Assembly (NCBI GenBank): GCA_050084515.1
Contig: CM114271.1
Span: 47,182,001-47,246,000, forward strand
Direction: 5' to 3'
DNA from: Blasia pusilla
Lineage: Eukaryota
DNA length: 64,000 nucleotides
The first letter of the stretch is position 1, and each line of letters opens with the position of its first letter. Shown in pieces: positions 19,860-50,479 of this stretch. The notes under the pieces were generated by a model. It saw only the letters and a program-made list of their open reading frames with translations. It was not told the DNA's origin and ran no database searches. The translations under genes were made by a program, and so were the position numbers.

Positions 19860-20285
19860 AGAGCAAGAGAAAGCAACAGACTCGAAGGGATTATGGAGGT
19901 ATTGTTATCTACGTCAAGTCTAAATTTCTATACCTCATACATCTACAAGATCAAGATATTGAGGAGTAATGTTGTTGGATACGTCTTGGTTTGGTTGGGA
20001 GACCTGATTATTATTTGGAAATGTATTATTTTGCATCACTTTCCATGCCTACATATATACCCAACGTGCGCTTGTCTTAGGAGTCAACCATTCATCATCT
20101 AGGTATTGATGTTCTCAACATTAACTCAAACCAAAGGCTAAGTCTTTCTAGTTGGGGATTTCAATGCTACGACACATACTACTAAATTTACCCAATTCAA
20201 TGATTCCTTGACATCTCCTCTTCTCGAAAAACCATATAATTGTTTATAGTCTAAAGTTTCTCATGATCCTTCCACTAATTTCACG
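19860..20285 (+). pseudogene. LINE AP-endonuclease remnant
   Basis: VFLVGDFNATT at about 20142-20175 (GDFN motif of L1-type endonucleases). The surrounding frame is degraded. Confidence 0.45.
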
Positions 20286-20289
20286 TTGA

Positions 20290-21812: not shown

Positions 21813-21949
21813 TAGAAACATATAAATATGTGCATATGTAAAAAAAAAAATAGACACTCAAGGGGATGGAAAAACTTGATCCAAAAGATAATATTATTCG
21901 ACCCTCCCTCATGGAAGGTAGGGGTATGTATCCTTAATCTAAACACTAT

Positions 21950-22721
21950 TGTCGTGCGCATACACATTGCTACAGAACATACATCGTTGTCACCAAACAC
22001 ACACACACAAACATGCACGATCCCATCCTAACTCATGGGATCCAAACAACGACATAAGAAGTACCAAAATATCTCCAATAAATCAAGATCCAATCTCTCT
22101 CAACACCATAGCTCTCTAATGTGTGCACTCTCACATGTCTCTCTCAATGTCAAACCAAACCCACTCTCCTAATAAGAGGCTTGGGTTACACACACAAGGC
22201 AAGCAAGACCATAGCTCTACCACCTTATGTCAAGAGGTTCAACAAAGAGAGAATGAGTTCTCAAGCTCTCTCTCCTTGAGGTATACCCCTCCCTTCCCCC
22301 AAGCTCTCTCCATAGTAACCTATGCTCCCAAGTCACCTCTTTGGCTCTTGACCCGATGTAGGAGGTCTAGGGCCATTTATAAAAAATGGAAACTCGACCA
22401 TATACTCAAAATAGTATTGACCTAAAATAGTAAGTTCCTCAATATGGCTCCAAATGAGCCGAAACGAAGGAGAAACCTTCTCTCTCAGGTTTCTCAAAGC
22501 CTCAGTAGGTCATCCTTGACCTCTTGAGCCTGTCCACCACTACTCGAGAAGGCGCTTTGCTTGATCTTACCGATCTATCTTAAAAGACGTGACAACTATC
22601 GTACGCATACACATCGTTACACAACACACATCGCTGTCATCGAACACACACAGAAACACGCACGATCCCATGCTAACTCATGGCATCCAAACAACGAGAC
22701 AAGAAGTACCAAAATATCTCC
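21950..22721 (-). repeat. 3' split terminal repeat block of copy 1: A (21950-22076), B (22079-22594), A' (22597-22721)
   Basis: A and A' align over about 125 bp (TGTCGTGCGCATACACAT...CCAAAATATCTCC). B aligns with 33535-34040. Confidence 0.9.
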
Positions 22722-22899
22722 GATCGTCCCTCTAGTTGGTGGTTAGGACCCTCTAACTCCAGATAGCCGTCTATCCCTACCTACCATGACATACATCTCT
22801 CGGACACTAAGAGCAAGAAGGTTGGGTGCTCATGTGGCCCCATCGTTAGTCGCCTTCTTGTCATCCATGTCACAGACACAAGTCAAAATGTAGAACTAT

Positions 22900-23060
22900 C
22901 TACGCTTTGTACATCTGAGACACATCTATCGTCCTTGAGGAACCCTAGTGAGAGGTGGCGTCAAACATGCCACATGCCATCCTATCGAACATCCATCACA
23001 GACTAGCATAGTGGCTGCACTACAGGCGGAACCACACAACATACACCACAAGATGGCAGG
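22900..23060 (-). pseudogene. PHD finger at the integrase C-terminus, copy 1
   Basis: CMLCGSACSAATMLVCDGCSIGWHVACLTPPLTRVPQGR*MCLRC is a C4HC3 PHD with the terminal Trp mutated to a stop. Confidence 0.88.
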
Positions 23061-23169
23061 AATTACTCCTAAGCTCGGATCAACTGTACCGTCAATGTTC
23101 GAAAGATGACACAACGTACAACTACGCACGTGGTCCTTCCAAACCATACCATCACATCCCTCCAATGAT

Positions 23170-25560
23170 TAAGAGAATACTTGATGGCAAAACCTCACAC
23201 ACTCTCAAGATTGTGGATGTTGAATTTGTATCCCACCGCCAAGCACGGGAGGTGAAGGTCCCAATCTCCTAGGTGACCTCTTTGCAAGCCATACTTGCGT
23301 AATCCTCTCTTCACCGTCTGCACAACCTTCTCCGCTAGTCCATCCGCCTCAGGTTGATCTCACAAAATAATGCGGTGGTTGATTAGTGCCTGATCACACA
23401 AGGTCTGAAACTCCCCGAGAAACTCTATACCCTGGTCTGTCAACACCTCAGCTGGTGCGTCGTAATGACTCAACACTCAATCTAGAAAGGCATACGCTAC
23501 TCCCTCACTCGCTTTGTCAGGCAATGCAATCAACTCTATCCACTTGGAGAAGTGTTTGACCATCACCAACACATAGCGACTTTGGCGCTCTGTCAAAGGC
23601 AAAGGTCCTACAAAATCCAAACTCCATCTATAACCTAAACCCATGATCGGAAGTGGATGCAACTGTGGAGTCCAAGCATTGAACGATGCTCGGACTCGAT
23701 CATACACCATGAATTTGGTAACAAATTGTTGAATGTCAGTTTGCATGCCTCACCACCAATACTGAATCTAGAGCAAGCTGTACGTCTGCTTCACTCCAAA
23801 ATGACCCAACTTCTCGTGGGCATGACATACCAAACGTACTCTCTACAAAGAATGAGGCACTACACGCACCCTACCATCCTCCCACACCCGCAACACATGT
23901 GTCCCCTCCCACCAGAATCGTTTGGCTCGTTGTAGGATCCGATCCCGCTCTCTAGCACCCACTATACTCGCAACGCTGCTAGTACGCAAGTACTCCAAGA
24001 CCACTCCATCGTCGTGAATTTCTCGGCCACTTGTCATCTCCTCACTAGCCTCTAGATCTAGGGACTCTCCATCAAACCTCGCCACCGAAGTCTCAACAAT
24101 TTGGCTCTCCATAGCCAACAAGCCTAAATAGGTTGACCCATGCCATCCTGGCACCAACTCCTCATCACTCTCACCATGCCAACGAGCTCCAATCGCATCT
24201 CGCTCACTCGAGCATGGATTACGGCTCAAACCATCTGAATCCTGGTTGAGCGTCCCAGGTCTATATACCACCTAGAAGTCATACTCCTGCAACAAAAGAG
24301 CCCACCTCGCAAGCTTCCTTGTAAGCTTGTCGGACTCCATCAACCACTTAAGTGGCTGATGATTAGTAATGATGGTAAAGGAATTGCCAAATAGTTAACA
24401 TCCGAAATGTGCGACAGCCCACATTGCAGCCAAGCACTCACCCTCATACCAGCTATATCTCGCCTATGTAGTGTTGTTCGAGGGACTAGCGTAAGCCACC
24501 ATGAACTCTCTACCATCATCATCATGCTGGGTGAGCACGGCTCCAAGCCCCAACATGCTCCAATTAGTATGCAACTAGAAAGGACGCCCCCTCATCGGTC
24601 TCCTTAATATGGGCGCGGACGTCAATCTGTCCTTGAGCATCTGAAATGCTCTCTCCTACTCATCCCCCCAATGCCACTCATGATCCACCTTGGTCAGTAA
24701 GGTCAACGTCTTTGCAATCGAGTTGAAACCCTTGATGTACCATTGATAGAAGTTCGCCAATCCCATGAATGCACGAACTCAACTCACATTTGTAGGGCGT
24801 GGAATGCGTGAAATAGCCTCTACCTTCGCCCACTGCACACCAAGGCCCCGTGGATATATTGTATGACCCAAGTACTCAATCTGGTCGTAGAAGAACTTGC
24901 ACTTGCCTGGATGTAACTCCAGCCCATGTAATTATAATCGTCGAAACACCTCCTCTAGATGTCGCTCATGCTCCTCAACCGTGGTGCTAAAGACCACGAT
25001 GTCATCAATATAACATCTAGCAAAATCAAGACCTTCCAAGATCCTATCCATGACTATCTAAAACTCAGCCGGGGCGTTCTTTAACCCGGATGGTAAGAAC
25101 CGCCACTGGTACAAAAAATCCTTCTCGTGAGGATCGATGCCCCAAAATGCCGTCTTCAACGTGTCCTCCAATCTGATAGGCAACTGATGGTATTCAGCTC
25201 GCAAATCCAATGAATTGAAGACCTTTGCATGCCCAATCGCATCAAAGATCTCCTCTAGGATGGGCATGGCATACCTATCAAACTTCATCTGCCGATTGAT
25301 AGGTCGGTAATCTCCACACATCCGGCTATCCGTCCAATTGCCATGTACATCCTTCTTGGCGGGCATGACAGTGGTAGATGCATACTCCCCATGCGACATC
25401 TCCACTAGTCTTGCTTCGACCAAGTCCTGGCTCCTACTCTGAATGAGAGCCCTCTCCACGTTAGTGTATCTATAGGTTCATTGGAAGATCCGTGTGTCAC
25501 TCGACAACTCAATGCGGATCCCTCGACCCTTCAACGTACCTAAATCATGCATGCTAAATG
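23170..25560 (-). pseudogene. RT - RNase H - integrase, copy 1
   Basis: RMCGDYRPINRQ, FNSLDLRAEYHQL, LPSGLKNAPAEF, YRPGTLNQDSDGLSR, YRWSLDFVGPLP, VMVKHFSKWIE. Lacks about 330 bp of the IN C-terminal region that copy 2 has (junction near 23215). Confidence 0.92.
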
Positions 25561-25994
25561 CCAAACAACTCTTATAACTCCTAAGGAAGTGATGTATCCG
25601 GCGCCGCTCTCCTCCTGTCAACTTAGGGCCCATATTTGGTTCCCAAGTCTCCATCGTGACTACAGTAGGAATCTTCGGCGCGGGTTTTGGTGGTTGCTAT
25701 GGTGCAACCTCATCTCGGACAACAAAACTCGACTGCTCCCCTGCAGCCAACTGCAAAATCGGATCTCCGTTTGCAGTACCCCGAACCATGGTCGATGTTA
25801 TGGCTACCATCTCTTGACGTTCCTGCAAAACATCCCAAGAAGTCCAAGGGTGTTTCTCCCGATCACCCTTAGCGTGTCGATCTCCTCGGGTCTTGCCCCT
25901 AGCCACTTCCTCAATCGTCTCGGTAGGCATGGGGCTCACCAACGCAACTACTGTGATCTATCGCATCCTCAAACGACGCTGCTCAGCTACTCCT

Positions 25995-26935
25995 AAGCTG
26001 AAAATCCATATTAAGCAGTTCAGGTCCATTGCTTGATCCAAGACATGAAGTCGTGACGCCTCTGATAGTGATGGTACTGCCATCATTCCTGTGGGGAATC
26101 CCATTGCTCGCTCTCGCTCATCCGCGTTGGGCTCCACCAACCTCTGTACCTGGTCATCCCAAACCAAGCTAGGTCCGACCTCCTTGGATGCATAGGAAGC
26201 GGGAAAACTCACCAATGTGGGAAAGGCTGCGCATGGCATGCCAATCCTGTTGACCATAGTCAACGGCGGTCGATCATCATGCCTCACTGCTTGTGATCGA
26301 CCGCCCAAATCCAATATAGAATCCACCAACAAATTAGAGGGACGCTCCACTCTCGCATATCTTGCAACACCTCGTGTGGTACCAAGTTGGTCCACCAAAG
26401 ATGCGGGCGATGTGCTCGTGAATCCACACTTGCCGCATCCAACAAAACTGTCAAGCCAATCCATACGTGCACTTGATATGCACTCGTCACCACACGGGAC
26501 CTCGAATCGCCCAAAATTGGTACATTTTCAAGAATGTATGCTGGAGGATGAGACTGATGCTCCTGCAATTGTCGCAAGATCTGCATCATCTCCCAAAACA
26601 ACTTGGACCGAGAGTCAACCCCGTCCAGTACTCGACTCGCCCTGACATGGGCAACCAACAATGACCAAGTCTATGGTCCCTACCCGCTCCAAGTCCTACA
26701 CCCCCAACAATGAAATGTCCCTCGATAGGGACTCTGGTAATCCTGAATGGCGGACACAGACAACTAATCAGGAACATGGAGGCGTGACTGCGCCACATGG
26801 TGAAGTGAAACACGCCTCGCAACATCATCAATCTCCACATACAGGTATTGTTGCACGTGCACTCTAGCATACAAAACATCAGCTAATCAAGTGTTGATCC
26901 CTCCAAAGAGATCCAACACCCAAATATACTCCTCT
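25995..26935 (-). pseudogene. DNMT3-like C5 cytosine methyltransferase domain, copy 1
   Basis: Motif I VLDLFGGINT*L; IV IDLVIVGCPCQG; V SRSKLFWEM; VI YILENVP; VIII LDAASVDSRAHRPHLWWTNL; IX-X ERERAMGFPTGM...SRLHVLDQAMD. Confidence 0.9.
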
Positions 26936-27699
26936 GGGATGCACCACACAATCGGGGTGGTATCTAAAGGGGTCATAGCAGCACTCCTGCCTACTTGGGG
27001 TTCCTCTCACCCGTCACACTCTGATGCAAACGTCTCGCTCCACGCAGTCTGCACATAATCAGTGGCTAAGCGTCAAAGCTCCTCAGTTGAGCCCCAAATC
27101 GGCACCTCTCCTCCATAGACGGATGCGGATACCATGATACTCCTCTCCACAGAAATGTCAAGAACGAGAGTATCATGTGCATGGACATGTGGCAAGTGAT
27201 GGCATTGCTAAATACTGCTAACGTTGCCATCTCTCCTCCATAGACTGATGCAGATACCATGACACTCCTCTCCATAGAAATGTCAAGAACGAGAGTATCC
27301 TGTGCATGGACATGTGCCAAGTGATGGCATTGCTAAATACTGCTAACGTCGCCATTTCTCCTAGAAGTCACTCAATCACTGCACATGTGAATCGAACGGG
27401 TAATGAGCTAAGGCGCCCATCACCTGATTGCCATCCTAGTCTATAGGACGCTGACTCCTCCCAATAACCCAGGGAAAATCCCATCGGGTGTAAAATTGCT
27501 CCACCAACCAAGATGTCAGAGGACTCTGCATCAGTCACTATCGCCTTGGCTAGCACCACGAACTCACCTGTAGGATGTCTCGGGAAAATCCTCACCACAA
27601 CCTCCTGTCGGGTGATGTACTGTGTGGTACTCGCTCCACCCACGGATGTCTGTATCCAGAATGGACAACGCTCCACATCGGCTCTTGTCAAGTCCATTC

Positions 27700-29704
27700 T
27701 GTGCGCCCCTTCATGAGTGGCTCCCATGTGTGTTAGATACTTTTGGGACTCTAGTTAGGTGAGTAGAAGGAGCTAGAACAACAATCTGCAATTTAAATGG
27801 GATCATTGGTGCTATTCGGACCAAAATGGTGGCAGCTCACATATCAGATTAGGATAGGAAATTAGCTTCAGCTGTCCATGCTTACAACACAGTTGAGAAG
27901 AGCACCACAGGGAAAAGTCCCTACTTCTTGGTGTATGGGCAGAACCCTCTCTCGGTAGTAGAGTTGGAGTTGAAGACTGATCATACTCTAGAAGGGGACT
28001 TCCAACCTGAAGGTGGCATAGATAGCAGGCTGGATATGATTGATGCCCTAGAGGAGGAGAGAAAGGCAGCATTAGAGAAGACCAAGGCCGTTCAGCAACA
28101 AAGGAAGATGAGGTTTGATAACCAAATACAGCATGATCCAGTGAAGGAGGGGGACATGGTGCTGATGTATGATAGTCGACCCCAAAATTTTCCAGGATAG
28201 CTACACATTCGACTGCTTAGGCCTTATCAGGTGAGGAGCAGCAGGGAAGTAATGAGGAGGTGAGGAGCAGTAGGGAAGTAATGAGATCAGGTGAGATCAG
28301 GTGAGGAGCAGCAGGGAAGTAATGAGGAGGTGAGGAGCAGCAGGGAAGTAATGAGATCAGGTGAGATCAGGTGAGGAGCAGCAGGGAAGTAATGAGATCA
28401 GGTGAGATCAGGTGAGGAGCTGAGGAGCAGTAGGGAAGTAATGAGATCAGGTGAGGAGCATCCAAGGGAAGCTCGAACCAGCTTAAGAAGAAGCAAGCTT
28501 GGGAAATGCTAGTTAGAACAGGTTCAGAAGTAGATGAGGTCGAAATTTCAGGCAGTAGATGCCTTGGAGTAGATGCTTAGGGGGAGGTAGATTTGTAGGA
28601 AGGTAGGAACCCAGAATGCCAGAGAAGCCCAAGGAAGAAGAGGGCTCTCAACTTCACTTATAAATACTCTAGTGGGTTTGCTTGAAGGCGGGAATAGACA
28701 TGTTGTTGGATAGTAGACACTCGATCTCTTGAGCCAAGCTAACCAGCACAGTTATGTGCTCCCAAGTCTAGGTAGTGTGTAGTGTGCTTGAAGGGGGCTG
28801 AGAAGAAGAAGGTCTCTCATGTACTCTATGATTTTGTGATACACAGGAGGTAGCCCTGTGAAATGAGTTCACACCATTGCCCTGTATTTGAGTATGTGCA
28901 TGATTGAGTGATGACTTGGGGGAGGGCTTGATGAAGGGAGATTCTTGGAGATGATTCAACTAATCATTCAAAAGTGCAGGGAGAGGACAAGAGGTCTGTC
29001 AAGAGAGGGGAGGCAAGCTTGGGTTCCAAGATTGTGCTCCACCAAGGTGTGCTTGGAAAGCTTGCTGTTCTACCCACCTAAGCTTGGCCTTTGACACCAA
29101 TCACATGATTACTTCGGTGTGACAACCTGGACTTCAGTCTGGTAAGTGATAAGAGTTAGTGAGTGGAGAGAGAGAGGGTCATGCTTGAGCTCCCCTATAG
29201 GTAGAAGACCATGGGCTCAGCTGTTAAGTCTCCTACTACCGAACAAGAAGGGAGAACATCGGATCAGCAAGGTACGAGGAGAAGAAGAAGGTGATTGCAC
29301 TACCTGATCGGTTAGGAGTTGGGTGTACTTTAGAGGATGCCTTGGTACATTCAACTAGTCAAGGCAAACACATTGGAGGACCTTATGTTGCCCTGGTCAT
29401 CCTTGACCTGTGAATTCTAAGTAGAGTGTGCTTGTTGGGTTCCACTGGCCACTCCACTCAAAGCACTCAAGAGGAAGGAAGGAGTTTTGGTTAGTAGGGT
29501 GAGGATAGGATTGTGATACTGAAGTGGAGAGAGTTCCTCCATCCTCTTAAGGTAAAGAGGTGGGGTTTACAGTAGTTAAGGAGTACATCTTGTAGATCTT
29601 GATCTTCTGATCTAGCCCTAAGCTCTTACATGGGACCGAACTGGTGGAACTAGCAACATTTTCACTTGGGGTTGTGTGTTGGCCATGTATTACCTGGTGA
29701 GACA
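27700..29704 (+). mobile_element. 2005-bp solo-LTR-like insertion (TG...CA, 5-bp TSD CATTC) containing a Gypsy integrase C-terminal fragment
   Basis: CATTC at 27695-27699 and 29705-29709. Removing the insert restores the protease sequence seen in copy 2 (CAAGCCCAATCCTCTGAATGAC). Internal frame at about 27855-28230: RKLASAVHAYNTVEKSTTGKSPYFLVYGQNP...VKEGDMVLMYDSRPQNFPG*LHIRLLRPYQV. Confidence 0.88.
28226..28460. repeat. Purine-rich compound tandem repeat (GGTGAGGAGCAGCAGGGAAGTAATGAG / ATCAGGTGAG)
   Basis: About six near-identical GAGCAG(C/T)AGGGAAGTAATGAG units with variable ATCAGGTGAG linkers. Confidence 0.9.
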
Positions 29705-30399
29705 CATTCCTCTGAATGACGCTCTCCCCAACATCAGGGGTTGCGCTCCTGAATCCAACAAGACGCTTTGCGGATTAAAAGCTCTACCTCCAAGACTCAC
29801 CAATTGGAAGACCTCTCTCTGGTTATCCAGCAACACAACACCATGAGAAGCCATGGCACGCTCTATCGTGGGTCTAGTGGGCATCTCCGCCATCCTAGCA
29901 GCCGCAGACTGCCATGAATCTGACGTGGACGGCCCGAGCATCCGCTCGAAGGGCAGGTCCATCACCTCCTTTGCAATCACCTCTAAACGTGATGCAAGAA
30001 CTCCAACTCCACACTCACATAGCGTAGTGGCGAGCCCAACACCTTGGCGGGCGTACCTCCCAATGTCATAACATCAGAAGCAAAAAATAGCGGAGCACAT
30101 TACACAATCGTGGCCGCCCCCAACATCGTACTCGACACATGATCCTCCTAAGCATCAGCAATAGGAGTTGTCGCACTTGTTTCTCCCATTGCCCTCCGTG
30201 CCTGCACACCAATAACATCACCAAGTCTCTGAGAACTCTGATCAAGATCCAATCGATGGGATCCTCATCGCCTCTGAAAATGTGAAAGAATCAGGAAGCA
30301 TGGCCTGTTTTTTGGCTTCCACTCGATGTGGATCCAACTCTATGGCTGCTCCACGCGTCACAACTGCGGCGGCCTCCATCTGGGCACATCCAACCAGGA

Positions 30400-31983
30400 T
30401 CCTCTATATCTCTGGCTGCTCCCTATGATGTCGATGCCGCGGATCCGGCATCGGGTAACCGCAATGCCATAGCAGCAATCTGCTCATGTAGCTGCTGTAT
30501 CTGAGCAGCCATCCCAACCTCATGCCCAAAATCTCCCTCGACGCGTCTAGGTGGTGGGACTCTACCTCCTCCACGGTCAACTCCACCACCTTGTCGGGCA
30601 ACTCCAGCTCCTCGTCCCCCAACGGGACCACCTGGTGCATGATCTCTAGGCCCACCCAGACCGGCTACTTGCTCTGGTACCCTCTCTGGCCTTTGGTCCG
30701 GACGTAACTCAGGGTGTAAACTAAAACACCTAGCGCGTATGTAACCATACCTCTGACAATAGCCACAATGATAACCCCTCCTCGTGCAACACCATCTCCT
30801 CCTCCATCCTGAGGCACACGTCCATGACCCTAACGAGTGCAATCACGCTGATGATGAGCTCCACCACATGACCAACAAGTAATCCTAGGTGGTTGCTGTT
30901 GAGCCGCATATGAAGGCGCAGGTCTCTGTGGCACGGCCTCCTGGTATCCTCCTTGAGCTCATGGTGCCACAATCAACCTATCTCAGAGTCCACATTGCTA
31001 CACTAGTGGTGCAGAAAATCGTGACTGCTCTCGCCCATAACTCATGGTGGCTACGCTCTCCTCTACCAAGTTGCGCTGAATGTTCTTGGCGGTCCTAAAA
31101 ACATCTCTCAACGTAAGGGAGGTGTTCATAAGAAGCACCCCCTCCCACACTCGTGTCCGAAGGGTCCGATCCAACATCGAGTACCATGATTGGATAGCCT
31201 GAGCCTCTGTCATCCCCTGAGTGACGTTGATCAACCGACGCAAGCGAGTGTAAGCCTCACACAAACTCTCACCCAAGCGCCTTTGGAAGTCATGATCCTC
31301 CGCAACTTCTTCGTCCATACCCCCTAGTAGCTCGCCCTCAACTTAGCGAAGAAGTCAACCATGGGGTTGAACCTGGGCCGAACCCGACTAGACGGTGCAA
31401 CTGCTCTAGTGCGAGTGACTCCTTCTAAAACATCACTAGTGGAAGAGGAAGTAGTCTCTCTTGACTCCTCCTCCTCATCTCGGAATGGCTCTATCCATGA
31501 CACATAGTGTGGATCATAGTAGAGTCACCATGCCTCAAACTCCTGGGCATATTTATGGGAGAACTCATGGTAATCGTCCATGGGCGACCCCTCTAAATGT
31601 TGGAACATAGCGTTCCATGCTGTAAAAAGTTGAACTCTCTAGAGTTCCTAGCCCATTGTGAGTCACACCAACCCGATAAACTCAGCAATAATGTCGTGTA
31701 GCTCTATAGTGCCTACAGTACCCAAAAACCTACACGGTCTTCTACCTCGTTCGTCCATCTCGTACGCCCAACTGGTAGGACCACTCAATGTGTACGGCGG
31801 ATCACTAACACACTCCTCTATACGCTCCCCCTTGTCTGAAGATGACACAGAAAAAGATTGAGGTGGTCTCTCACCTGGAGACCCTCGAAACCTCGCACCA
31901 CTCCGGGTAAACCCTCCAAAGCTACTCTCAAGTCCACTACCTCGCCTCTCAAAATCCCGAAAGGACGTCTTGATGGCCCTCAT
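30400..31983 (-). pseudogene. Gag with CCHC-type zinc knuckle, copy 1
   Basis: DFQRRLGESLCEAYTRLRRLI (retrotransposon gag QxxxES motif). CGYCQRYGYIRARC is a knuckle; the His position is intact in copy 2 (CDYYQRYGHTRARC). Confidence 0.8.
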
Positions 31984-33534
31984 GCCGTTCTCACACGATC
32001 ACTCTCAATCTCGCAAGTAATCCCTCAATCATTCAAACTAAACATACGGCACTCAATCTACACTCTCTCATTAAGACGTGTGTTGTGCGGCAACAAGCAG
32101 CGTGGTGCGACAAATCAACTCATCTATCGTCTCATCAACAAACCATCCTCAACTCTGGACATCCCACACAGGTCTATGTCCCCTAAACCCATACATCATT
32201 GATGTTCTCAACATCAACACGAAACCCAATATCCCAAATAACTTCCCAATATCCGGAAATCCCTCACACGTGTAGGGTAAGAGACCAGAATGGGTAACTT
32301 GACAATCATGTTGATGTCACTCCTCGGAAACTGAAAATCTTGACCCCAATTCGGTCATGAAGATAACTCCTCTAATCAGCAAGTTGTACTCCTCTCATAT
32401 TGACGTTGCTCAAACCTCCTCGATGTGCGGTGGAGATCTAGCGGTCTGATGCGCACGAAACGGCTACAAATAGCACGATACTCGGGAATGGGGTGCGGCA
32501 CCCGGCGACATATCCTCCTCAATCAGAAATTCACACGATGTGCTCCTTAGTGAAGGAGTGGTTCTATGATCGAGACGGTGTGCTGCGGCCACGAGCGGCA
32601 CGGCGTGGCAATCGGCGGCGCGTTGTGGCTACGAGCGTCACGGGACGGTACTCAATCGTCGTCGTGCGGCTACCAATCACAACATAGCAGCATGAAATGA
32701 AAACTCAAACACCTTAACCCGAGGTCATCTGCCATCATTGGTCGATGACGAAATTTTGATGAAGGAGGCGGCCAAAAAAAAGTCCGTGGTGGCGGCGCAA
32801 GTCAAAGAATCAATGGTCGTCGTGGAAGACCCTCCACTCCGTAATGGCGGCAATGGCAACTAAGGGTGGACAACGGCCAAATGCGGCTCTGAGCAATGCT
32901 AGGCGGCGTACGATTGACTGTTGATGGTGATGATTGACCATTGACGGCGGACCGTTGACAATGACTATAACGGGCAACGGTGGTGGTTCACGGTTTGAAC
33001 AATTTAACCCTAAAAATCATCTAGCAATGGTAGTTTTGCAAGACTGACCATAACTTTTTGCTCGCAACTCCAAATTGCGTATTGTTTGTTGCACATATGT
33101 ACAACTTTATGATCTACAACGACCTCAAAAAATATTTTAAATCGGACATTCCAATAAAAACTAACAGGGATTGTCGTAAATCCCAACGTCTCTTTCTCCT
33201 ACAGAAATTTTGGCAGCGCTTCTGTGCTGATTTCTCCCAACAAAAATGTAAAACCTGTGACAATAAAAATCATCAAGCTACATAGTGCTCTCGAGAGCAT
33301 CGGCATGGGGGAATTTGCCCCCATATTCAATCCTTATAAAAAATTGGGCAGCGCTTCCGCGCGCCACTTTTCCACAAAAAAATGGCAAAAGAAACATAAA
33401 AAATGAGCGGCTCCGGCTCCATTGAGCACTCCCATGAACCGCTGAACGGGGAATACGATCCCCAACCTACAAAACCAGCGAGTGATCAGCGAGCTCTCCC
33501 ATGAAGCTCTCTCACTCATCTCATTCTCTCTTTG

Positions 33535-34040
33535 TAAATCAAGATCCAATCTCTCTCAACACCATAACTCTCAAATGTGTGCACTCTCACATGTCTCTCT
33601 CAACGTCAAACCAAACTCACTCTCCTAATGAGAGGATTGGGTTACACACAAGGCAAGTAAGACCATAGCTCTGTCACCTCATGTCAAGAGGTTCAACAAA
33701 AAGAGAATGAGCTCTCTCTCCTTGAGGTATACCCCTCCCCTCCCCCAAGCTCTCTCCATGGTAACCTATGCTCCCAAGTCACCTCTTTGGCTCTTGAACC
33801 GATGTAGGAGGTCAAGGGCCATTTATAAAAAATGGAAACTCGACCATATACTCAAAATGGTACTTACCTAAAATAGCAAGTTCCTTAATATGGCTTAAAA
33901 TGAGCCAAAACCAAGGGGAAACCTACTCTCTCAGGTTTCCCCAGGCCTCAGCAGGTCATCCTCGACCTCTTGAGCGTGTCCTCTACTACTCAAGAAGGCG
34001 CTCTACTAGATCTCACCGATCTATTCTAAAAGACGTGACA
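33535..34040 (-). repeat. 5' terminal repeat of copy 1 (segment B only)
   Basis: Aligns to 22079-22594 from TAAATCAAGATCCAATC to AAAAGACGTGACA. Segment A is absent next to it. Confidence 0.9.
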
Positions 34041-34524
34041 CTATTAAAATAATGGCTTATCGAAATAGAAGAGAAGCCTACTACAATGGGTGATTGGAAG
34101 CATCGAATTATTTGACACAAACAAAAATTAATTGACATGAAGGAATAACAAGAACCGATAGAGAATAAATAACCAGTTCACATGAAGGAAAAAAGATGTA
34201 AATCAATGGTGGACATAAACATACGAGATGGAATGATGTGTTGGATACCATGCCTCGCTAGGAAAAAAATATGAAACCTGCCTATGGAGTCCATAATTAG
34301 GGGATGTAGAGAGCATGTGACGCAACATGATGGTAACCCTTTGGGACAAAAAAACCCCCTAAATTCCAAAGAAAAGAAAAAAAAGCCATTCGCTATCCAC
34401 TAAGACAATAAAGTGGATTCTATTAAGAAAATAAACTACATATAAACCATCCTTCCACCATCGACCAATCACCCTCCACAGACCCATTAGAAAAATATAA
34501 GAGCACTCGTTTATTTATTTATTA

Positions 34525-41400: not shown

Positions 41401-42179
41401 AAGGCCCTCGATATTATCTCGCCCTACCTCTCATCTCCCATAACCAAAATATGAGCTGCAAAAGCGAAACACAAGCCTAGAGAGATGTCTCAAAAGATGA
41501 TGGTTTGAACCTAGGAGAGCATGATTGAATATTGGATATAACTTAAGGAAATCTCCGGCCCCATAAGAGTAAAATTCTAGGGAAACTATAACATAGCTTG
41601 TAACATGACAAAGTGTTTAGGGGACAAGTCCAATCCACTAAAGATCCAAATAAATGCAGGAGAATAGGTATAGAAATGGGTCTCAAATTAGCACGATGGT
41701 AGCTTGGGTTGGAGGCCATAAGGAACAACACATGAGGAATCTTGGATAAATATATGGGGAAGATTTCTCTATAACTATATTTAAGGGGTAGGGTCTTCAA
41801 GGGTGTTTGGAACATGAACCCCATCTTAAGAACCATGGGGGTGACCCAAGGGCACACGATGGATTGAGAATCTTTGAGAGGTTGACTTTAGGATTTTTCA
41901 AGCTCACGCCACTCTTGTGAGCTCTCCATACACAACTCCATAAAAATTTTAGAATCATTCCCACACATACAAAATCATCTTATAAAAACAACAAACCAAC
42001 AAGCTTGGATTCTCGTGAGCATCCCCATGAGCAATTTAATGGAAAACACAATCCTCACCTTGCAAAATAGACAATAAGCAACATCTAACGTGCTCCAAAC
42101 CTCCAAAGCTCCCATTTTGTAAAGATGTCTCTCTTTCTTATGGAGCTCTCATTCTTTCTCATTTACATGCACATTCCAT

Positions 42180-42314
42180 GGCTCTCTCTAATGTCAATCC
42201 AAACACATTCTCATAGTGAGAGGCTTAGGTTACTTACAACGCAATGAACACCATAACGCCATTATCTCATGGAAAGAGGTTCAACAAAGTAAGAATCAAC
42301 TCCCGAGTTCTTCC

Positions 42315-42373
<59 letters not shown>

Positions 42374-42600
42374 AGAATATACATTCAGTCCCTTTTCCAA
42401 ACCCTCTTCTTAGTCACCTATACATGCAAGTCATCTCCTTAATCCTAATATATGATAGTAGGTTAAAGGAAAATTTTCCCAAATGGAAAAATCAAATATA
42501 CCAAAAATAAAGAACTCATCTGAAATGATAAGTTCTTCGAGATTACTCCAAATTAGTCCAAAATAAGTGGGAACCTATATACTCAAGTTACTCTCCTTCT
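42180..42600 (-). repeat. Diverged homolog of terminal segment B, within a larger LTR-like remnant; includes (CT)n at about 42322-42372
   Basis: AATGTCAA.CCAAAC.CA.TCTC.TA.TGAGAGGCTT.GGTTAC...AAGAGGTTCAACAAAG..AGAAT...TAAGTTC.TC is colinear with 22145-22490. Confidence 0.65.
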
Positions 42601-43547
42601 CAACATATTATCCTTATCATGGACCTACTCCCTTAAACGTCGGTCTAATAAGTCATATATGGAAGCTTGTATTCAACCAATTATGCTCTTCTTTCCGATC
42701 TAAACTAAACACACTTACATTAGCCATGATTTGAGTCAACTAGTCTTGTGTCTCCCAAGTTTGAGTTTTGGATCATCCCTGAAGCGCAAAAGATCTAGAA
42801 AGGGCCAAATACCGACCTAACCTTTCACTCCCTAATATATGCAAGTCATTCAAGACTTGGGACAAACTTATTTGATACTGTAGGAACCTCAAATGGTGCT
42901 AACGCACATAGCAATCACAAATGCCCAATTAACCTCGAACGACTCCCTAACCATAACTTAATGTTTGAGTCAGAGATTAAGGTCCGAGGTTGACATTCAT
43001 AAGTAGACTACATGTTGCAAAAAGATTTGCATATCTGCCAAGGCATTGAGCTCTTCACTGCAATCAGCCACGCTATGAGGATCCAACGCCATGATGACCA
43101 TGCGCCTAAGGATGTCCACCGTATCCACTTCCGCATCATATTCGATCACCAACTTACGCCACACATGCCCCCCATCCAATTATAGGAATTGCTGAAACTC
43201 AACGATTAGTCGTGCCACACTCAATTTTAGGGGTTATAATTTGTGACTACTTGTTATGTTCTATCGAAAAAAAAAAATTGATGTTGACAATGAGTTGTTG
43301 TACTGACATATTCAGGTTTCATATTTGATATGTGCTTCTTTTCCATTTCGTGTTATCTAGCGTGTTGTAAATCAACTTGACAAGTATGATGACATCGAGA
43401 GGGGATATTCTGCATTTTGGAGGTTTGCACTCAATGCACTGCGCGTTAGTATGCTGCCCCCATAATTTTCACGGAGTTTTTATTTTAGGGCATTGTTTGA
43501 GGGATGTGCCATAACTTAATTGCTCGCTTATGGATGTATTATGACTG

Positions 43548-44302
43548 TGTCGTGCGCATACACATCGCTACACAACATACATCGTTCTCACCGAACACAC
43601 ACACAAACACGCATGATCCCATGCTAACTCATGGCATCCAAACAACGAGACAAGAAATACTAAAATATCTCCAATAAAATAAGATCTAATCTCTCTCACA
43701 ACACCATAGTTCTCACATGTCTCTCTCAATGTCAAACCAAACCCACTCTCCTAATGAGAGGCTTGGGTTACACAAAAGGCAAGCAAGACCATAGCTCCGC
43801 CGCCTCATGCCAAGAGGTTCAACAAAGAGAGAATGAGCTCTCAAGTTCTCTCTCCTTGAGGTATACCCGTCCCCTCTCCCAAGCTCTCTCCATGGTAACC
43901 TATTCTCCCAAGTCACCTCCTTGGCTCTTGACCTGATGTAGGAGGTCAAGGGCCACTTACCAAAAATATAAAGTCGATCATATACTCAAAATAGTACTTA
44001 CCTAAAATAGTAAGTTCCTCAATATGGCTCCAAATGAGCCGAAACGAAGGGAAAACCTGCTCTCTCAAGTTTCTCGGGGCTTCAGCAGGTCATCATCGAC
44101 CTACTGATGCTTCTCCTCCACTACTCACAAAAGCGCTCTACTACATCTCACTGATATATCCTAAAAGACGTGATAGTTTTTGTGCGCATACACATCACTA
44201 CACAATATACATCGTTGTCACCGAACACACACACAAACACGCACGATCCCATGCTAACTCATGGCATCCAAACAACAAGACAAGAAGGGCTAAAATATCT
44301 CC
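43548..44302 (-). repeat. 3' split terminal repeat block of copy 2: A (43548-43672), B (43675-44175), A' (44178-44302)
   Basis: Same A-B-A' layout and 2-nt spacer as copy 1. Confidence 0.9.
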
Positions 44303-44491
44303 AATCGCCCCCATAGTTGGTGTTTAGGTCCCTCTAACTCCACATAGCCATCTATCCCTACCTACCATGACATACATCTCTCGGACACCAAGAGCAAGAA
44401 AGGTCGGCTGCTCATGTGACCCCATCGTTACTCGCCTTCCTGTCATCCATGTCACAGAAAATTTGGAATCGAAACCTACCTATTATCTCCT

Positions 44492-44650
44492 CTATGTACA
44501 TCTGGGACACATCCATCGTCCCCGAGGAACCCTAGTGAGAGGTGGCGTCAGACATGCCATATGCCAACCTCTCGAACATCCATCATAGACTAGCATCGTG
44601 GCGGCATCACAGGCAGAACCACACAACATACAACGCAAGCCTGCAGGAAC
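44492..44650 (-). pseudogene. PHD finger, copy 2
   Basis: LRCMLCGSACDAATMLVYDGCSRGWHMACLTPPLTRVPRGRWMCPRCT* (third Cys mutated to Tyr here, intact in copy 1). Confidence 0.9.
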
Positions 44651-44745
44651 TACTGCTAAGCTTGGATCTACTGTACCATGAATGTTAGGAAGATGATATG
44701 GTGCACAATTAGGCACATGGTCCTTCCATACCATACCATACCATA

Positions 44746-47500
44746 TCATCGCGTCCCTCCAACAAGAGAACACCGGATGGCAAAAACGTCACGAACTCTC
44801 AAGATAGTGCGCCCTGTAGTCACATCCAATATTGTCGGCATTGTCTGCTGCAAGTAGACATAATCTCCCCGATGAAACCTCTGGATAATTGGTCGATAAC
44901 CACCATCCCGAATAGTTGCATCCCTCAACGTATCACGATGTTGCGTAATCGCCAAGTTCTCGAACGCCATGGGCATCACTCTCCAAAACAACTCAGCCCT
45001 CTGAGAACATGCTCGCATCCATACATCCGAGTCATCAAGGTCCAGCACCTCACCAGCATCTCGACGAATGGCCGTAGGTAAATCTGGCTCTCGGCCATAA
45101 AGTAGCAAGTACGGTGAAAAAGACGCTAAGAATGTTTGCCTGCTGAATTTGTATCTTATTGCCAACCATGGCAACTAGAGGTCCCAATCTCCTAGGTGAC
45201 CTTTCTGCAAGCCATACTTGTGTAAACCCTTCTTCACCGTCTGCACAACTCTCTCCACTAATCCATCCCCCTCGGGATGATCTCGCAAAGTCGTGCGGTG
45301 GTCAATCAACGCCTGATCACACAAGGCGTGGAACTCACCATGAAACTCGGTACCCTGGTCGGTCAACACCTCAGCCCGTGCGCCATAATGACTCAACACT
45401 CTATCAAGGAAGGCATAAGCTACTCCCTCAATCGCTTTGTCAGGCAATGCAACCAACTCGATCCACTTTGAGAAGTGCTCGACCATCACCAACACATAAC
45501 GACTATGACACTCCGTCAAAGGCAAAGGTCCTGCAAAATCCAAACTCCATCTATACCCTAAGCCCATGATCGGTAATGGATGCAACTGTGGAGTCGGAGC
45601 ATTGAACGATGCTCGGACCCGATCACACACCATGCACCTGGCAACAAACTGTTGAACGTCAGTCTGCATGCCTCGCCACCAATACTTAATCTGGAGCAAG
45701 CTGTACGTCCGCTTCACCCCAAAGTGACCCAACTCCTCATGGGCATGCTGCACTAGTCGTGCTCTTTGCAAAGGATGCGGCACTACGCGTACTCTACCAT
45801 CCTCCCAAACCCTCAAAACATGTGTCTCCTCCCAACGGAACCGTTTGGCCCGCTGTATGATCCGATCCCGCTCTCTAGCACCCACAGTGCTCGCAATCTG
45901 CCAGTACAAAGGTACTCCAAGACTACTCCATCATCATGAATATCTCGGCCATCTCTCGTCTCCTCACTGGCCTCGGGATCCAAGGACTCTCCACTAGACC
46001 TCGCCGTCAAAGTCTCTACACTCTGGCTCTCCATAGCCAACATGCCTAAATAGGCACTGACTCCTCATCACTCTCTCCATGCCATCGAGCTCTAGTTGCA
46101 TCTCGCTGACTCGGGCATGGGTTACAACTCAATCCATCTGCATCTTGGTTGAGCGTCCCAGGTCTATGTACCACGTGAAAATCATAATCCTGCAACAACA
46201 GAGCCCATCTCGCAAGCTTCCCTGTAAACTTTTCGGACTCCATCAACCACTTCAGTGGTTGATGATCAGTGATGATGGTAAAGGGGTTGCCGAATCAGTA
46301 ACATCTGAAATGCGCGACAGCCCACACTACAGCCAAGCATTCACCCTCATACGAGATGTACTTCGCCTCTCCAGCCTTGTTTGAGCGGCTAGCATAAGCC
46401 ACCACAAACTCTCTACCCTCATCATCATGCTGGGTGAGCACCGCTTCAAGCCCCAACATGCTCCAATCTGTGTGCAACTGGAAAGGACGCCCCCTGATCA
46501 GTCTCCTCAAGATGGGCGCGGATGTCAACCTATCCTTGAGCAATTGAAATGCTTGCTCCTGCTCATCCCCAGAGTGCCACTCGTGATCCACCTTAGTCAG
46601 CAAGGTTAGCGGCTTCACAATCAAACTGAATCCCTTGACGTACCGCCGATAGAAGTCCGCCAATCCCATGAATGCGCGAACACTGCTCACATCTGTAGGG
46701 CGTCGAATACGTGAGATAGCCTCTACCTTTTTCTGCTAAACACCAAGTCCTCTGGGTATATCGTATGACCCAAGTACTCAATGTGATCCTAGAAGAACTT
46801 GCACTTGCTTGGATGTAGCTTTAGCCCATGTAATTGCAATCGTCGAAATACCTCCTCTAGATGTCGCTCATGCTCCTCAACCGTGGCGCTAAAAACTACG
46901 ATGTCATCAATATAACACCTAGCAAAATCCAGACCTGCCAAGATCCTATCCATGACCCTCTGAAACTCAGCCGGGGCATTCTTTAACCCAAATGGTAAGA
47001 ACCCCCACTGGTACAAACAATCCTTCCAGTCAGGTTGGATGCCCCAAAATGCCGTCTTATGTCTGTCCTCCAATCTAATAGGCAGCTGATGGTATCCGGC
47101 TCGCAAATCTAATGAACTAAAGACCTTTGCGTGACCAATCGCATCAAAGATCTCCTCAGGGGTGGGCATGGCATACCTATCGGACTTTGTCTGCCGATTG
47201 ATAGGTCGGAAATCCCCACACATCTGCCTATCCGTCCTGTTGCCATGCACATCCTTCTTGGCGGGCATGACAGTGGCAGATGCATACTCCCCATGCGACA
47301 TCTCCCTAGTCTTGCTCCAACCAAGTATTGGCTCCTACTCCGAATCAGAGCCCTCTCCATATCATTGTTCTTGTAAAGTCTTCGGAAGATCGGCGTGTCA
47401 CTCGACAACTCAATGCGGATCCCCGGTCCCTTCAACGTACCCAAATCCTCCAAGCTAAACGCAAAGCAACTCCTATAACTCTGGACGAATTGATGTATCC
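44746..47500 (-). pseudogene. RT - RNase H - integrase, copy 2
   Basis: RT: LDLRAGYHQL, LPFGLKNAPAEFQRVM, CYIDDIVVFS. RH: FQLHTDWS, VVAYASRS, EGECLAVVWAV. IN: HAHEELGHFG..CMVC (HHCC), SLDFAGP, LTDQGTEF, GDGLVERVVQT (DDE). The RT-RH-IN order is the Gypsy order. Confidence 0.95.
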
Positions 47501-47899
47501 TGCGCCGCTCTCCTCCTGTCAACTTAGGGCCCATATCTGGCTCCCAAGTCTCCATCGTGACTATGGTAGGACTCTCCGGTGTGGGTATCGGTGGTTGCTA
47601 TGGTGCAACCCCATCTCCAACAACAACACTCGACCGCTCTCCTACAACCAACTGCAAACTCTAATTTCCTCCACGTGCAGTGCCCGGAACCACGCTCGAT
47701 GCTGTGGCTACCATCTCCTAGCGTACCTGCAAAACATGTTGTGGCTACCATCTCCTATCCCAAGGGTGTCTCTCCCGATCTCCCCTGGTATGTAGATCTC
47801 CTCGAGTCTGGCCCTGAGCCACTGTCTCCAACGTCTCGGTAGGCATGGGGCTCACGAACGCAACCGATGTGATCTGTCGCGATCTCATACGGCGTTGCT

Positions 47900-48860
47900 C
47901 AGCCACTCCCAAGCTGAGAATCCATGTCAAGCAGTTCAGGTCCATTGCTTGACCCAAGACATGGCGTCGTGATGCCTCTGATACTGACGGTACTGCCATC
48001 ATACGTGTGGGAAATCCCTTTGCTCGCTCTCTCTCGTCGACGTTGGGCTCCACAAACCGCTGAACCTGGTCATCCCAAACCAAGCTAGGGCCGGCCTCCT
48101 TGTATGTGTAGGAAGCGGGAAAACTCACAAACGTGGGCAAGGCTGCCCGCGGCCTGCCTACCCTGTTGACCACAATCAATGTTGGTTGATCATCGTGCCT
48201 CATAGCCTGTGATCGACAACCTCGATCCAGAATGTAATCCACTAACAAATGGGAGGGGCGGTTCACTCTCGCATACGCCCTCGATAACACCCCATGGGGC
48301 ACCAAGTTGGTCCACCATAGACGCGGGCAATGGGCTCTCGAGACTACACTCGCCGCATCCAAGAACACTACTGGGCCGATCCAGGCACGCACCTCATGAG
48401 CACTCGTCACCAGTCGTGACATGGAATCTCCTAAGATCGGCACATTCTCCAAAACGTAGGCTGGAGAACAAGAATGGTGCTCTTGCAACTACCATAAGAC
48501 CCTCAACATCTCCCAAAACAACCTGGACTGAGTGTCAGCCAACCCGTTGCCTCGTCCAACACTCGATTGGCCCTGACATGGCCAACTGGCAATGACCAAA
48601 TCAATGGTCCCTACCCAATCTAAGTCATGCGCTCCCAACAACGAAATATCCCTCGGTAGGGAACTCTGTACCCCTGTACCACGGACGCAGACAATAAGTC
48701 GGGAAAACATAGGCGTAAGTATGCCACATGTCGTAGTGAGACACGCCTCGCAACATCATCACTCTCCACATACAGGTACTACTGCACTTGCACTCTTGCC
48801 TGCAAAATAGTAACTAACCCAGTGCTAATCCCTCCAAAGAGATCTAACACTCGAATACCC
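47900..48860 (-). pseudogene. DNMT3-like C5 cytosine methyltransferase domain, copy 2
   Basis: GIRVLDLFGGISTGL (I); PRDISLL (III); IDLVIASWPCQGQS (IV, catalytic PC); QSRLFWEMLRVL (V); YVLENVP (VI); LDAASVVSRAHCPRLWWTNL (VIII); ERERAKGFPTRM...SRRHVLGQAMDLNCLTWIL (IX-X). Confidence 0.93.
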
Positions 48861-49259
48861 TCCTCTGGGATACACCACACAATGGGTGTGGTATCCAAGG
48901 GTGTCATTGTTGCACTCCCTGCTACCTCGGGTTCCTCAGACCCGTCATGCTCCGGTGCAAACGCCTCGCTCCACGCGGTCTGCATGTGCTCATCTGCCGA
49001 TCGTCGAAGCTCCTCAGTCGAGCCCCACAACGGCACTTTTCCTCCACGGAATGCGGCTACCATAACACTCCTCTCCAAAGAAATGTCAGGAACGGGAGTA
49101 TTCTTTGCATGGACATGTCCCTCAATCAAATCACTAGGCCAAGTGATGGCCCTGTTAAATGTTGCTAACGTCACCACCTCTCCTCGCCGTCGCTCGATCA
49201 CTGCACCTGTAAATCGAACGGGTAATGAGCTAAGGCACCCATCACCTGACTACCATCTT

Positions 49260-49620
49260 GGTCTGTAGGATGGTGACTCCTCCCAGTAATCTAGGGAAAA
49301 CCCCATCGGTTATAACACTGCTCCACCAACCAAGACGTCGTAGGACTCTGCATCAGTCACTATCGCCTTGGCTCGCACCACGGACTCATCTGTAGGATGT
49401 CCTTGGCGAATCCTCACCATGACCTCTTGTCAGGTGATATATTGTGTGGTACTCGCTCGACCCAAGGATGTCTGTATCCAGAATGGACAACGCTCCACAT
49501 CGGCTCTCGTCAAGCCCAATCCTCTGAATGACGCTTTCCCCAACATCAGGGGTTGCGCTCTTGAATCCAACAAGATGCGTTGCGGACTAAACGCTCTATC
49601 TTCGGGACTTACCAACTGGG
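49260..49620 (-). pseudogene. Aspartic protease, copy 2
   Basis: QRILLDSRAQPLMLG ... DAESYDVLVGGAV. Confidence 0.85.
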
Positions 49621-50479
49621 AGACCTCTCCTCGGTTATCCAGCAACACAACACCAGGAGAAGCCATGGCCACCTCTATCGCGGGTCGAGCGGGCATCTCC
49701 ACCATCCTAGCAGCCGCAGCATGCCATGAATCTGACGTGGACGGCCCGAGCATCCGCTTCAAGGGCAAGTCCATCACCTCCTCTGCAATCACCTCTAAAC
49801 GTGATGTAGGAACTCCAACTCCACGCTCACATAGCATAACGGCGAGCCAAAAAGCCTCGGCGGGCGTACTCTCCAATGTCATAACATCGGAAGCAGAAAA
49901 TAAATGAGCGTGGTACACAATGGTGGCTGCCCCCAACAACGTGCTCGACACATGCCCCTCTTGAGCATCAACAATAGGAGTCGCCGCACTTGCTTCTCCC
50001 ATCGCCTTCTGTGCCTGCATACCAACAACATCACCAGCTCTCTAGGAACTCTGATCAGGACCCATCGATGGGGTCCTCATCGCCTCGTACAACGTGAAAG
50101 ATTGAGGAAGCCTAGTCTGTTTCCTGGCTTCCCCTAGCTGTGGATCCAACTCTGCGGCTGCTCCATATGTCACAATTGCGGCGGCCTCCATCTGGGCAAC
50201 CCCGCATATCCAACCAGGATCCTCCATATCTTTGGCTGCTCCATATGATGTCGATGCCAGGGATCCGGCATCGGGTAACCTCAATGCCATAGTGGTAATT
50301 TGCTCCTGTAGTTTTTGTATCTGAGCAGCCATCCCAGCCTCACGTCCGGCGTCTCCCTCGATGCGTCTAGGTGGTGGTACTCTACGTTCCTCCACGGGCA
50401 GCTCCACCATCCTGTCGGGCAACTCCTTGTCCCCCAACAGGACCACGTGGTGCACGATCTCTAGGCCCACTCGGACTGC

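Follow-up and report, generated by a model that had tools for sequence, protein, structure and literature searches.

The 64,000-nt stretch of Blasia pusilla DNA analysed here (assembly GCA_050084515.1, contig CM114271.1, positions 47,182,001 to 47,246,000; hereafter the window) carries a decayed retrotransposon of the Ty3/Gypsy type, copy 1, whose direct repeats are split. A long repeat of about 510 bp (X) stands alone at the 5′ end, and a short repeat of about 127 bp (Y), a second X and a second Y follow one another at the 3′ end. The sequences place the integrase-type ends head to head at the Y/X junction, within the long terminal repeat (LTR) and not at the ends that the cDNA would have. 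We favour, with moderate confidence, the reading that this is a rotated (circularly permuted) LTR, in which a Y+X LTR would be made by canonical reverse transcription and the palindrome at the Y/X junction would be cut by the integrase. The original prediction, made from the letters of the same stretch, called X and Y segments B and A, and its interpretation as a whole is partly supported. The sense strand is the minus strand for all element coordinates in the window, and the features are collected in Table 1.

Split repeats and replication signals

Copy 1 extends from 34040 to 21950 (-) and reads, in sense, X1, internal region, Y1, two nucleotides, X2 and Y2. The two X repeats are 90.0% identical over 521 aligned nt (E 0.0) and the two Y repeats 86.7% identical over 128 nt (E 8.6e-38). 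The split order described in the original prediction is therefore real, and its coordinates were correct to within 2-3 nt, with the offsets at the Y starts. The 5′ border reads ...TAATAG|TGTCACGTC and the 3′ border ...GCGCACGACA|ATAGTGTT. The termini TGTC...GACA (TGTCACG... and ...CACGACA) are TG...CA ends with a 4-bp ATAG duplication on either side, and both these bounds and the predicted CTAT target-site duplication (TSD) were confirmed at the two borders. X1 runs without a Y into the leader (...GATTTA, then CAAAGAGAGAATGAG...), and the X2/Y2 joint TTTA|TTGGAGAT is the same in copies 1 and 2. At the internal junction of copy 1 the plus strand has GACAACTATC (22591-22600), and the predicted plus-strand readings GACA-AC-TATC for copy 1 and GATA-GT-TTTT for copy 2 stand as written. 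The integrated copy does not carry two identical full LTRs at its ends, the 5′ end having X only and the 3′ end Y-X-Y; a full Y+X LTR, which the reverse-transcription signals imply, would exist at the cDNA stage only.

Two further copies are present in the window. Copy 2 lacks the 5′ 2.7 kb of copy 1, differs from it by about 16% and lies in different flanking DNA. Its domain order is gag, protease (PR), DNA methyltransferase (DNMT), reverse transcriptase (RT), RNase H (RH), integrase (IN) and PHD finger, and these are followed by a tract resembling a polypurine tract (PPT), Y1, the spacer, X2 and Y2. Both copies are decayed, with many stops and frameshifts, and across the window copies no site groups the Y1s against the Y2s. 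Copy 3 is the 5′ end of a diverged relative, in which the leader follows X directly with no Y between. This leader aligned to that of copy 1 with a score of 175, against 78.8 +/- 11.2 in 500 shuffles, none of which reached 175, and a maximum of 126 in 170 random pieces of the window; the scores of Y2 and Y1 against the same post-X stretch (84 and 88) were within the shuffle range. By profile search, Y occurs exactly four times in the 64 kb and X, or a sequence like it, also four times; sensitive blastn and profile searches of the window detected no others.

Relatives were obtained by an integrase-alignment scan of a prokaryote genome collection, which returned six eukaryotic contigs mis-binned into metagenome-assembled genomes (MAGs), namely L001 to L006 (CADCWO010000148.1, CADCWO010000201.1, PUMO01000133.1, JBAVTE010000030.1, PWFW01000202.1 and PUMO01000218.1, respectively). 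L001 and L002 are young relatives. In L001, with 66% integrase identity to the window, Y1 (2311-2416), GC, X2 and Y2 (2779-2884) succeed one another before the flank begins. The cyclic assembly L002, 9158 bp long, has identical 127-nt ends and a single Y, and its path runs from Y-X to the leader and on to gag. The Y1 and Y2 of L001 agree at 106 of 106 positions, and the Y of L001 differs from that of L002 at 5 of 106; as the two lineages have diverged in Y while the Y pair within L001 has not, one Y must be copied from the other in every cycle. L005 and L006 were uninformative, as GACAGATGTC lies within the PHD coding region and the contigs stop about 1.1 kb past the integrase.

All three readable 5′ junctions (copy 1, copy 3 and L002) pass from X to the leader without a Y, and all three readable 3′ ends (copies 1 and 2 and L001) are Y-X-Y, which bears out the prediction that the 3′ block is a family trait. 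Judged from copy 3, from L001 and L002, from the coincident break in homology between the repeats and from the identity of Y1 and Y2 in L001, the split layout is a trait of the family and not a private deletion of copy 1.

The Y/X junction of the younger relatives reads ...CACGACA-GC-TGTCACG.... The 10-nt palindrome GACAGCTGTC (GACA-GC-TGTC), which had been predicted as the ancestral form of the junction, is present letter for letter in L001, L002 and L003. L003 even has a 16-nt perfect palindrome at this point, and in L004 the palindrome is cut by the contig end. It occurs in four of the four loci that reach the junction, as compared with about 0.7 chance matches expected in 43 kb by our own arithmetic. 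Palindrome and PPT position are kept down to 45-46% integrase identity, including L004, in which the DNMT is differently placed, and the site is accordingly conserved.

The original prediction saw no PPT and placed the junction where that tract should be. This did not hold: a G-run PPT stands directly upstream of Y1 and not at the Y/X junction (...CTAGGGGGGGCA|CTTGAGGG in L001 and L002, CAGGGGGGTA in L003 and CCAGGGGGGGAA in L004), and no purine tract was found upstream of X2 in copies 1 and 2. The prediction also saw no tRNA primer-binding site (PBS) after the 5′ X; none was found by the searches described below, and a self-complement occupies the position instead. The 15-mer CAAAGAGAGAATGAG (33534-33520) pairs perfectly with CTCATTCTCTCTTTG of the X2 of both copies, and X1 has one G-U change. 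None of 500 shuffles reached 15 nt, the largest value being 12. In L002, CTTGACAAAGAT after X pairs with ATCTTTGTCAAG over 12 nt, a length reached by 1 of 500 shuffles. In the window and in L002 alike, the X segment lies 28-29 nt past a TATA-like motif and 177-178 nt from the end of X. The predicted RNA 5′ end pairs with the post-X bases in both the minimum-energy and the centroid folds of the window element and L002, a pairing that follows from the complementarity and is not independent evidence. ARAGORN found no tRNA gene in the window, and a short initiator-Met PBS motif gave 4 matches at 2 mismatches against 5.3 expected, none of them near X1. Priming looks tRNA-independent, with a self-priming arrangement after X. 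The layout, the signal positions and the conservation of the palindrome are established by these comparisons of sequence.

Proposed integration route and alternative explanations

From these signals we infer a transcript start, self-priming, a joined intermediate and a cut. Transcription would begin inside X, about 28 nt past the TATA-like motif, and end in X2. The first 12-15 nt of the RNA would fold back on the exact complement after X1 and prime the minus strand in the manner of Tf1, and the plus strand would start at the G-run PPT directly before Y1. With Y preceded by the PPT and X followed by the PBS, strong-stop synthesis of the usual kind would give an ordinary linear cDNA whose LTR is Y+X, i.e., [Y X]-PBS-internal-PPT-[Y X]. 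The ends of this cDNA would be joined, in a 2-LTR circle or a head-to-tail concatemer, and would form the X/Y joint seen as X2/Y2. The DDE integrase would then cut the palindrome adjoining the PBS, 3′ of CA on both strands, to give 3′-CA ends with 2-nt overhangs, and strand transfer would produce X-PBS-internal-PPT-Y-X-Y with a short target duplication. As the integrase would cut inside the LTR, genomic copies would be the cDNA rotated by one Y. Among the possible cut products, only X-...-Y-X-Y would retain a full U3-R downstream and could be copied again. Of the regeneration route originally proposed, the tRNA-independent priming seems right and the DDE type of the integrase is borne out by the rve domain, but we prefer canonical Y+X synthesis to the remaking of the ends from the internal junction.

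Several points weigh against this route. The contigs L001 to L004 are short-read assemblies of eukaryotic source with collapsed repeats, and L002 is itself a collapsed cycle. L001 ends exactly 127 nt past the first base of Y2 and thus has only 21 nt of flank (2884-2905). The identity of the X2/Y2 joint in copies 1 and 2 suits a templated joint as well as a precise joining of ends. The length of the TSD comes from one copy, the sole copy in the window with both ends, and a 4-bp match at fixed positions has a chance of 1/256. The PPT is weak in the decayed window copies, copy 3 has no self-complement (longest 6 nt), and the sole complementary pair of L003, 12 nt long, involves the TATA-like motifs. 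The circles or concatemers, with their joining and cutting steps, are our inference. Moreover, none of the 4 elements whose ends are informative has the alternative form X-Y-X-internal-Y. Were the two palindromes of a circle cut without preference, this product would be expected about as often as the one observed, so either an ordering step lies behind the reaction or the intermediate differs from the one proposed.

With regard to the end of L001, its 127 nt equal the length of the terminal overlap of L002, and 127 nt is probably the word size of the assembler. This hints at a branch in the assembly graph at that point, for example where copies sharing a flank differ in having or lacking the X2-Y2 unit.

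A route like that of Ngaro and PAT, which we regard as unlikely, would start from a sub-genomic transcript without the outer X1 and Y2, and the internal Y1/X2 junction would template or bridge both ends before insertion by the DDE integrase. The layout is exactly the A1-internal-B1-A2-B2 given for PAT, Ngaro and VIPER in the available descriptions, the two terminal sequences face each other at the internal junction, and the young copy L001 has preserved the identity of its Y1 and Y2. However, the PPT before Y and the primer-type complement after X suffice for canonical synthesis, which leaves bridging unneeded; neither a tyrosine recombinase nor an internal complementary region was found in copies 1 and 2 and L002; and the insertion is flanked by a target duplication, a feature that DIRS-type elements are said to lack. 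It is very improbable that the LTR is an ordinary X+Y, that copy 1 lost its 5′ Y, perhaps with the PBS, and that Y1 arose long ago when the tail of the LTR was duplicated internally. X2+Y2 does begin with TG and end with CA like an LTR, and the window holds one complete copy only, but Y is absent at each of the readable 5′ junctions, published KnitGypsy-Dnmt3 copies carry the same DIRS-like repeats according to the figure legend, and the purine tract stands before Y1 and not before X2. In addition, the homology between X1 and X2 stops within about 3 nt of the point where that between Y1 and Y2 starts, and an old duplication would still need copying in every cycle for the identical Y repeats of L001. 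Plant genomes often contain LTRs in tandem or recombinant arrangements, and repeats do collapse in short-read assemblies, as in L002. Nevertheless, an origin of the Y-X-Y block from rearrangement after insertion or from an assembly artefact (unequal recombination or a mis-join) is hardly credible, because two window copies about 16% apart, in different flanks, share this block and its end point, because L001 has the block as well, and because the palindrome and the PPT position are conserved at the low integrase identities given above.

In the textbook view, an LTR retrotransposon inserts itself by way of both termini of a linear cDNA, and circular forms count as dead ends. In the rotated LTR, the integrase-type ends lie inside the repeat and the priming signals at its outer borders, so that genomic copies would need a joined intermediate. 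A wider claim, possible but doubtful in our view, is that the whole green Ty3/Gypsy lineage with PHD and DNMT3 never integrates from linear cDNA ends, that its integrase acts on nothing but a palindrome inherited within the LTR, that a 2-LTR circle or concatemer is obligatory and that all genomic copies are rotated. This wider claim would make the circle-junction route a natural pathway and would supply a living intermediate between canonical LTR elements, the split-repeat tyrosine-recombinase elements and circle-junction transposition of the insertion-sequence type; a resemblance to the circle junctions of IS3/IS911-type insertion sequences is apparent. If the rotated reading is true, the split-direct-repeat layout would be independent of a tyrosine recombinase, and the group would offer a tractable natural system for LTR-LTR junctions as integration substrates, and Marchantia is a laboratory model with related DNMT-gag polyproteins. 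In practical terms, an LTR finder that pairs X1 with X2 would place the 3′ border 129 nt short of the true end and detect no TSD, and such families are likely to be mis-annotated.

Coding content and known systems

Judged from its coding sequence, the element is a decayed liverwort-type member of the KnitGypsy-Dnmt3 kind, a Ty3/Gypsy group of the green lineage in which a Dnmt3-like methyltransferase is encoded together with a PHD finger at the C terminus. The pol order PR-RT-RH-IN with a DDE integrase is that of Ty3/Gypsy (Metaviridae), and TG...CA termini with a 4-bp duplication fit the 4-6 bp of that group; the GACA end is also found in copy 2 and L001. The RT-RH-IN part of copy 1 is colinear with P0009 and P0010 at about 60% identity (tblastn). 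The Pfam search covered open reading frames (ORFs) of at least 60 aa, namely 21 out of 31 in copy 1 and 18 out of 28 in copy 2. In copy 2, Pfam detected DNA_methylase (1.9e-7), RVT_1 (2e-28), RNase H, Integrase_H2C2, rve and PHD. No tyrosine recombinase (Phage_integrase) was found in these 39 ORF pieces and the two full ORFs of L002. Motif I of the methyltransferase is readable in the window element, DNA_methylase reaches E 6.8e-12 in L002, and the top matches among solved structures are DNMT3A/3B/3C (E about 2e-7). The original prediction did not mention the methyltransferase or the PHD finger.

The best integrase matches are in Riccia sorocarpa (81%) and Calypogeia fissa (78-80%), as compared with 53% in Klebsormidium nitens. 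More distant relatives occur in Sphagnum, Klebsormidium, Closterium and volvocine algae, most of which share the PHD finger. Both window copies align colinearly with the K. nitens protein P0047 (KFL_009030040) at 29-52% identity, in an order of possible PR, DNMT, RT, RH and IN with the DNMT before RT. Many gag-PR-DNMT polyproteins of Marchantia polymorpha, annotated as hypothetical, are 35-58% identical to the window copies. With the window element, liverworts join the hosts of methyltransferase-carrying retrotransposons. The ORFs of L002 are intact and encode gag(CCHC)-PR-DNMT, a stop, and RT-RH-IN-PHD; the lone in-frame stop between them (3489-3491) may be a programmed read-through site or a single mutation.

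The position of the DNMT varies within the group. It stands before RT in the window copies, L002, P0047, P0020 and P0078, and between RNase H and integrase in L004 (5830-6864), P0079, P0109, P0036 and P0044. These orders suggest that the module either moved or was acquired twice. Two of the six mis-binned contigs, L002 and L004, carry the DNMT. The six are filed under bacterial MAGs (cyanobacterium, Mollicutes, Minisyncoccia and Halanaerobiaceae), encode eukaryotic Gypsy-PHD retrotransposons and look like eukaryotic contamination of bacterial bins.

The closest known system is KnitGypsy-Dnmt3 of K. nitens, for which DIRS-like repeats with Gypsy domains were described (de Mendoza et al. 2018, PMC5890265). 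The original prediction supposed the family to have been overlooked, but the Fig. 4c legend of that paper already states this combination. The likeness extends, in the parts of the 2018 text available, to a Gypsy-type pol, a Dnmt3-like methyltransferase inside the polyprotein and the DIRS-like repeats, whereas the window host is liverwort-like and the window copies are dead. For the repeats, the same parts of the text offer no mechanism and name neither a PBS or PPT nor a palindrome or TSD. P0047 was likened to KnitGypsy-Dnmt3 by its architecture, and the kinship of the window element comes from colinear identity. Within the searches made, the name KnitGypsy-Dnmt3 occurred in one paper only, nothing specific was found on Gypsy-DNMT3 in liverworts, and no split-direct-repeat Gypsy element with an integrase of such a layout was described in the text retrieved; a 2026 preprint names 'streptophytes (Gypsy-DNMT3)'. 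As far as these searches and the accessible text reach, a repeat structure of this kind was noted once and never explained. The repeat anatomy, with the PPT before Y, a self-complementary PBS after X and a palindrome in the LTR, and its reading as a permuted LTR appear to be unreported in the searched literature.

PAT, Ngaro and VIPER of the DIRS order are defined, in the descriptions available, by the layout A1-internal-B1-A2-B2, in which the internal B1/A2 joint represents the joined ends of the element, and the original prediction was right to call this layout their hallmark. According to the same descriptions they differ in having a tyrosine recombinase and no TSD, whereas the window element has rve and H2C2 domains, TG..CA ends and a 4-bp duplication. 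The window element partly works like the split-repeat DIRS elements without being one.

As would be expected of a self-priming element like Tf1/sushi or the plant Tcn1, the bases after the 5′ repeat complement what may be the 5′ end of the element's own RNA, over 12-15 nt here as against 11 nt in Tf1. Those elements have ordinary paired LTRs. Self-priming was predicted for the plant Tcn1 and TAR clades (Neumann et al. 2019). For the proposed cut, a precedent is found in retroviruses: 2-LTR circles of foamy virus are cleaved by the integrase at their palindromic LTR-LTR junction, which gives 3′-processed linear DNA, and in HIV-1 the palindrome at the 2-LTR junction is a substrate for cleavage by the integrase tetramer (Delelis et al. 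2005, 2007). In both cases a retroviral-type integrase cuts a head-to-head ...CA-NN-TG... palindrome and leaves 3′-processed ends. The retroviral palindrome arises by joining of cDNA ends and the route is minor or debated, whereas here the LTR already contains the palindrome by inheritance, and the integrase would have no other site to use.

The original prediction also pointed to Troyka, which is likewise an LTR element of unusual, virus-like character whose integrase is of the DDE type and whose termini depart from the standard. Membership was rejected on termini, duplication length and host: Troyka elements have true, ordinary LTRs, CG..CG termini, 3-bp duplications and animal hosts, with no split repeats in the part of the description available (Kojima 2025, PMC12440569), as compared with TGTC...GACA, 4 bp and a liverwort-like host in the window.

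Feature coordinates and further observations

Table 1. Features of the retrotransposon copies in the window (window positions; sense is the minus strand)
Feature	Position	Strand	Sequence or basis
5′ TSD of copy 1	34041..34044	-	ATAG in sense; same 4 bases at 21946-21949
X1, 5′ repeat of copy 1	33535..34040	-	begins TGTCACG; X-profile E 3e-187
Putative transcript start / primer segment in X1	33697..33711	-	CTCATTCTCTTTTTG; TATA-like GGTATACC at 33726-33733
PBS-like 15-mer directly after X1	33520..33534	-	CAAAGAGAGAATGAG; exact reverse complement of X segment
gag remnant, copy 1	30699..31291	-	tblastn, L002 ORF1 residues 248-434
Stretch of about 2 kb in copy 1, absent from copy 2	27700..29704	-	gap in copy 1/copy 2 alignment
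Protease remnant, copy 1, just upstream of DNMT	27374-27697	-	
Dnmt3-like C5 cytosine methyltransferase remnant, copy 1	25967..27105	-	Pfam DNA_methylase E 0.004; tblastn to P0047 and L002 ORF1
RT - RNase H - integrase (H2C2 zinc finger + rve core), copy 1	23219..25660	-	Pfam RVT_1, rve; frameshifts, stops
C-terminal PHD finger, copy 1	22908..23165	-	Pfam PHD E 2e-7; tblastn
Decayed polypurine-like tract before Y1, copy 1	22724..22735	-	CTAGAGGGACGA; aligns with CTAGGGGGGGCA of L001, L002
Y1, internal short repeat of copy 1	22597..22723	-	ends GATA; Y-profile E 2.6e-40
2-nt spacer GT of decayed Y/X palindrome	22595..22596	-	sense junction GATA-GT-TGTC
X2, 3′ copy of long repeat	22079..22594	-	self-alignment and profile search
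Primer segment in X2 copies	22243-22257 (copy 1), 43823-43837 (copy 2)	-	CTCATTCTCTCTTTG; T of TATA 28 nt upstream
Y2, terminal short repeat of copy 1	21950..22078	-	ends ...GCGCACGACA; same final base as copy 2
3′ TSD of copy 1	21946..21949	-	ATAG in sense (CTAT on + strand)
Copy 2, 5′-truncated within gag	43548..51148	-	blastn 82-85% to copy 1
PPT-like tract before Y1, copy 2	44305-44316	-	CTATGGGGGCGA
Copy 2 Y1	44178-44304	-	
Copy 2 X2, after 2-nt spacer	43675-44175	-	
Copy 2 Y2	43548-43674	-	terminates at same ...GCGCACGACA as copy 1
Copy 3, X of diverged relative, 5′ end only	42119..42713 (start approximate)	-	X-profile positions 72-480, E 2e-26, 4e-19
Copy 3 leader, directly after X, no Y between	41900..42118	-	local alignment to copy 1 leader

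The stretch of copy 1 at 27700-29704 had no Pfam match and may be a nested insert or an expansion of the gag-PR linker. Its GC skew is opposite to that of the remainder of the element, a family of repeats of about 70 nt lies inside it at 28226-28455, and a 125-bp tandem pair lies just outside it at 27103-27352. Just beyond the 3′ flank of copy 1, on the opposite strand, lies a short piece of a further element that belongs to the same group and carries a DNMT (20286-20546 (+), also 20105-20135; tblastn with L002 ORF1 residues 1166-1252, E 1.6e-9).

Elsewhere in the window, the stretch 36661-38493 has 54% GC and a strong positive GC skew. It contains overlapping ORFs of 549 aa (-) and 554 aa (+), the plus frame being rich in G, K, S and V, and showed no Pfam match and no tandem repeat. 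A hAT-like transposase gene is present in three diverged copies at 52670-54944 (-), 57399-59700 (+) and 61955-63799 (+), with zf-C17orf113, DUF4371 and hAT dimerisation domains. They lie at the right end of the window, where they make up long repeats in both inverted and direct orientation.

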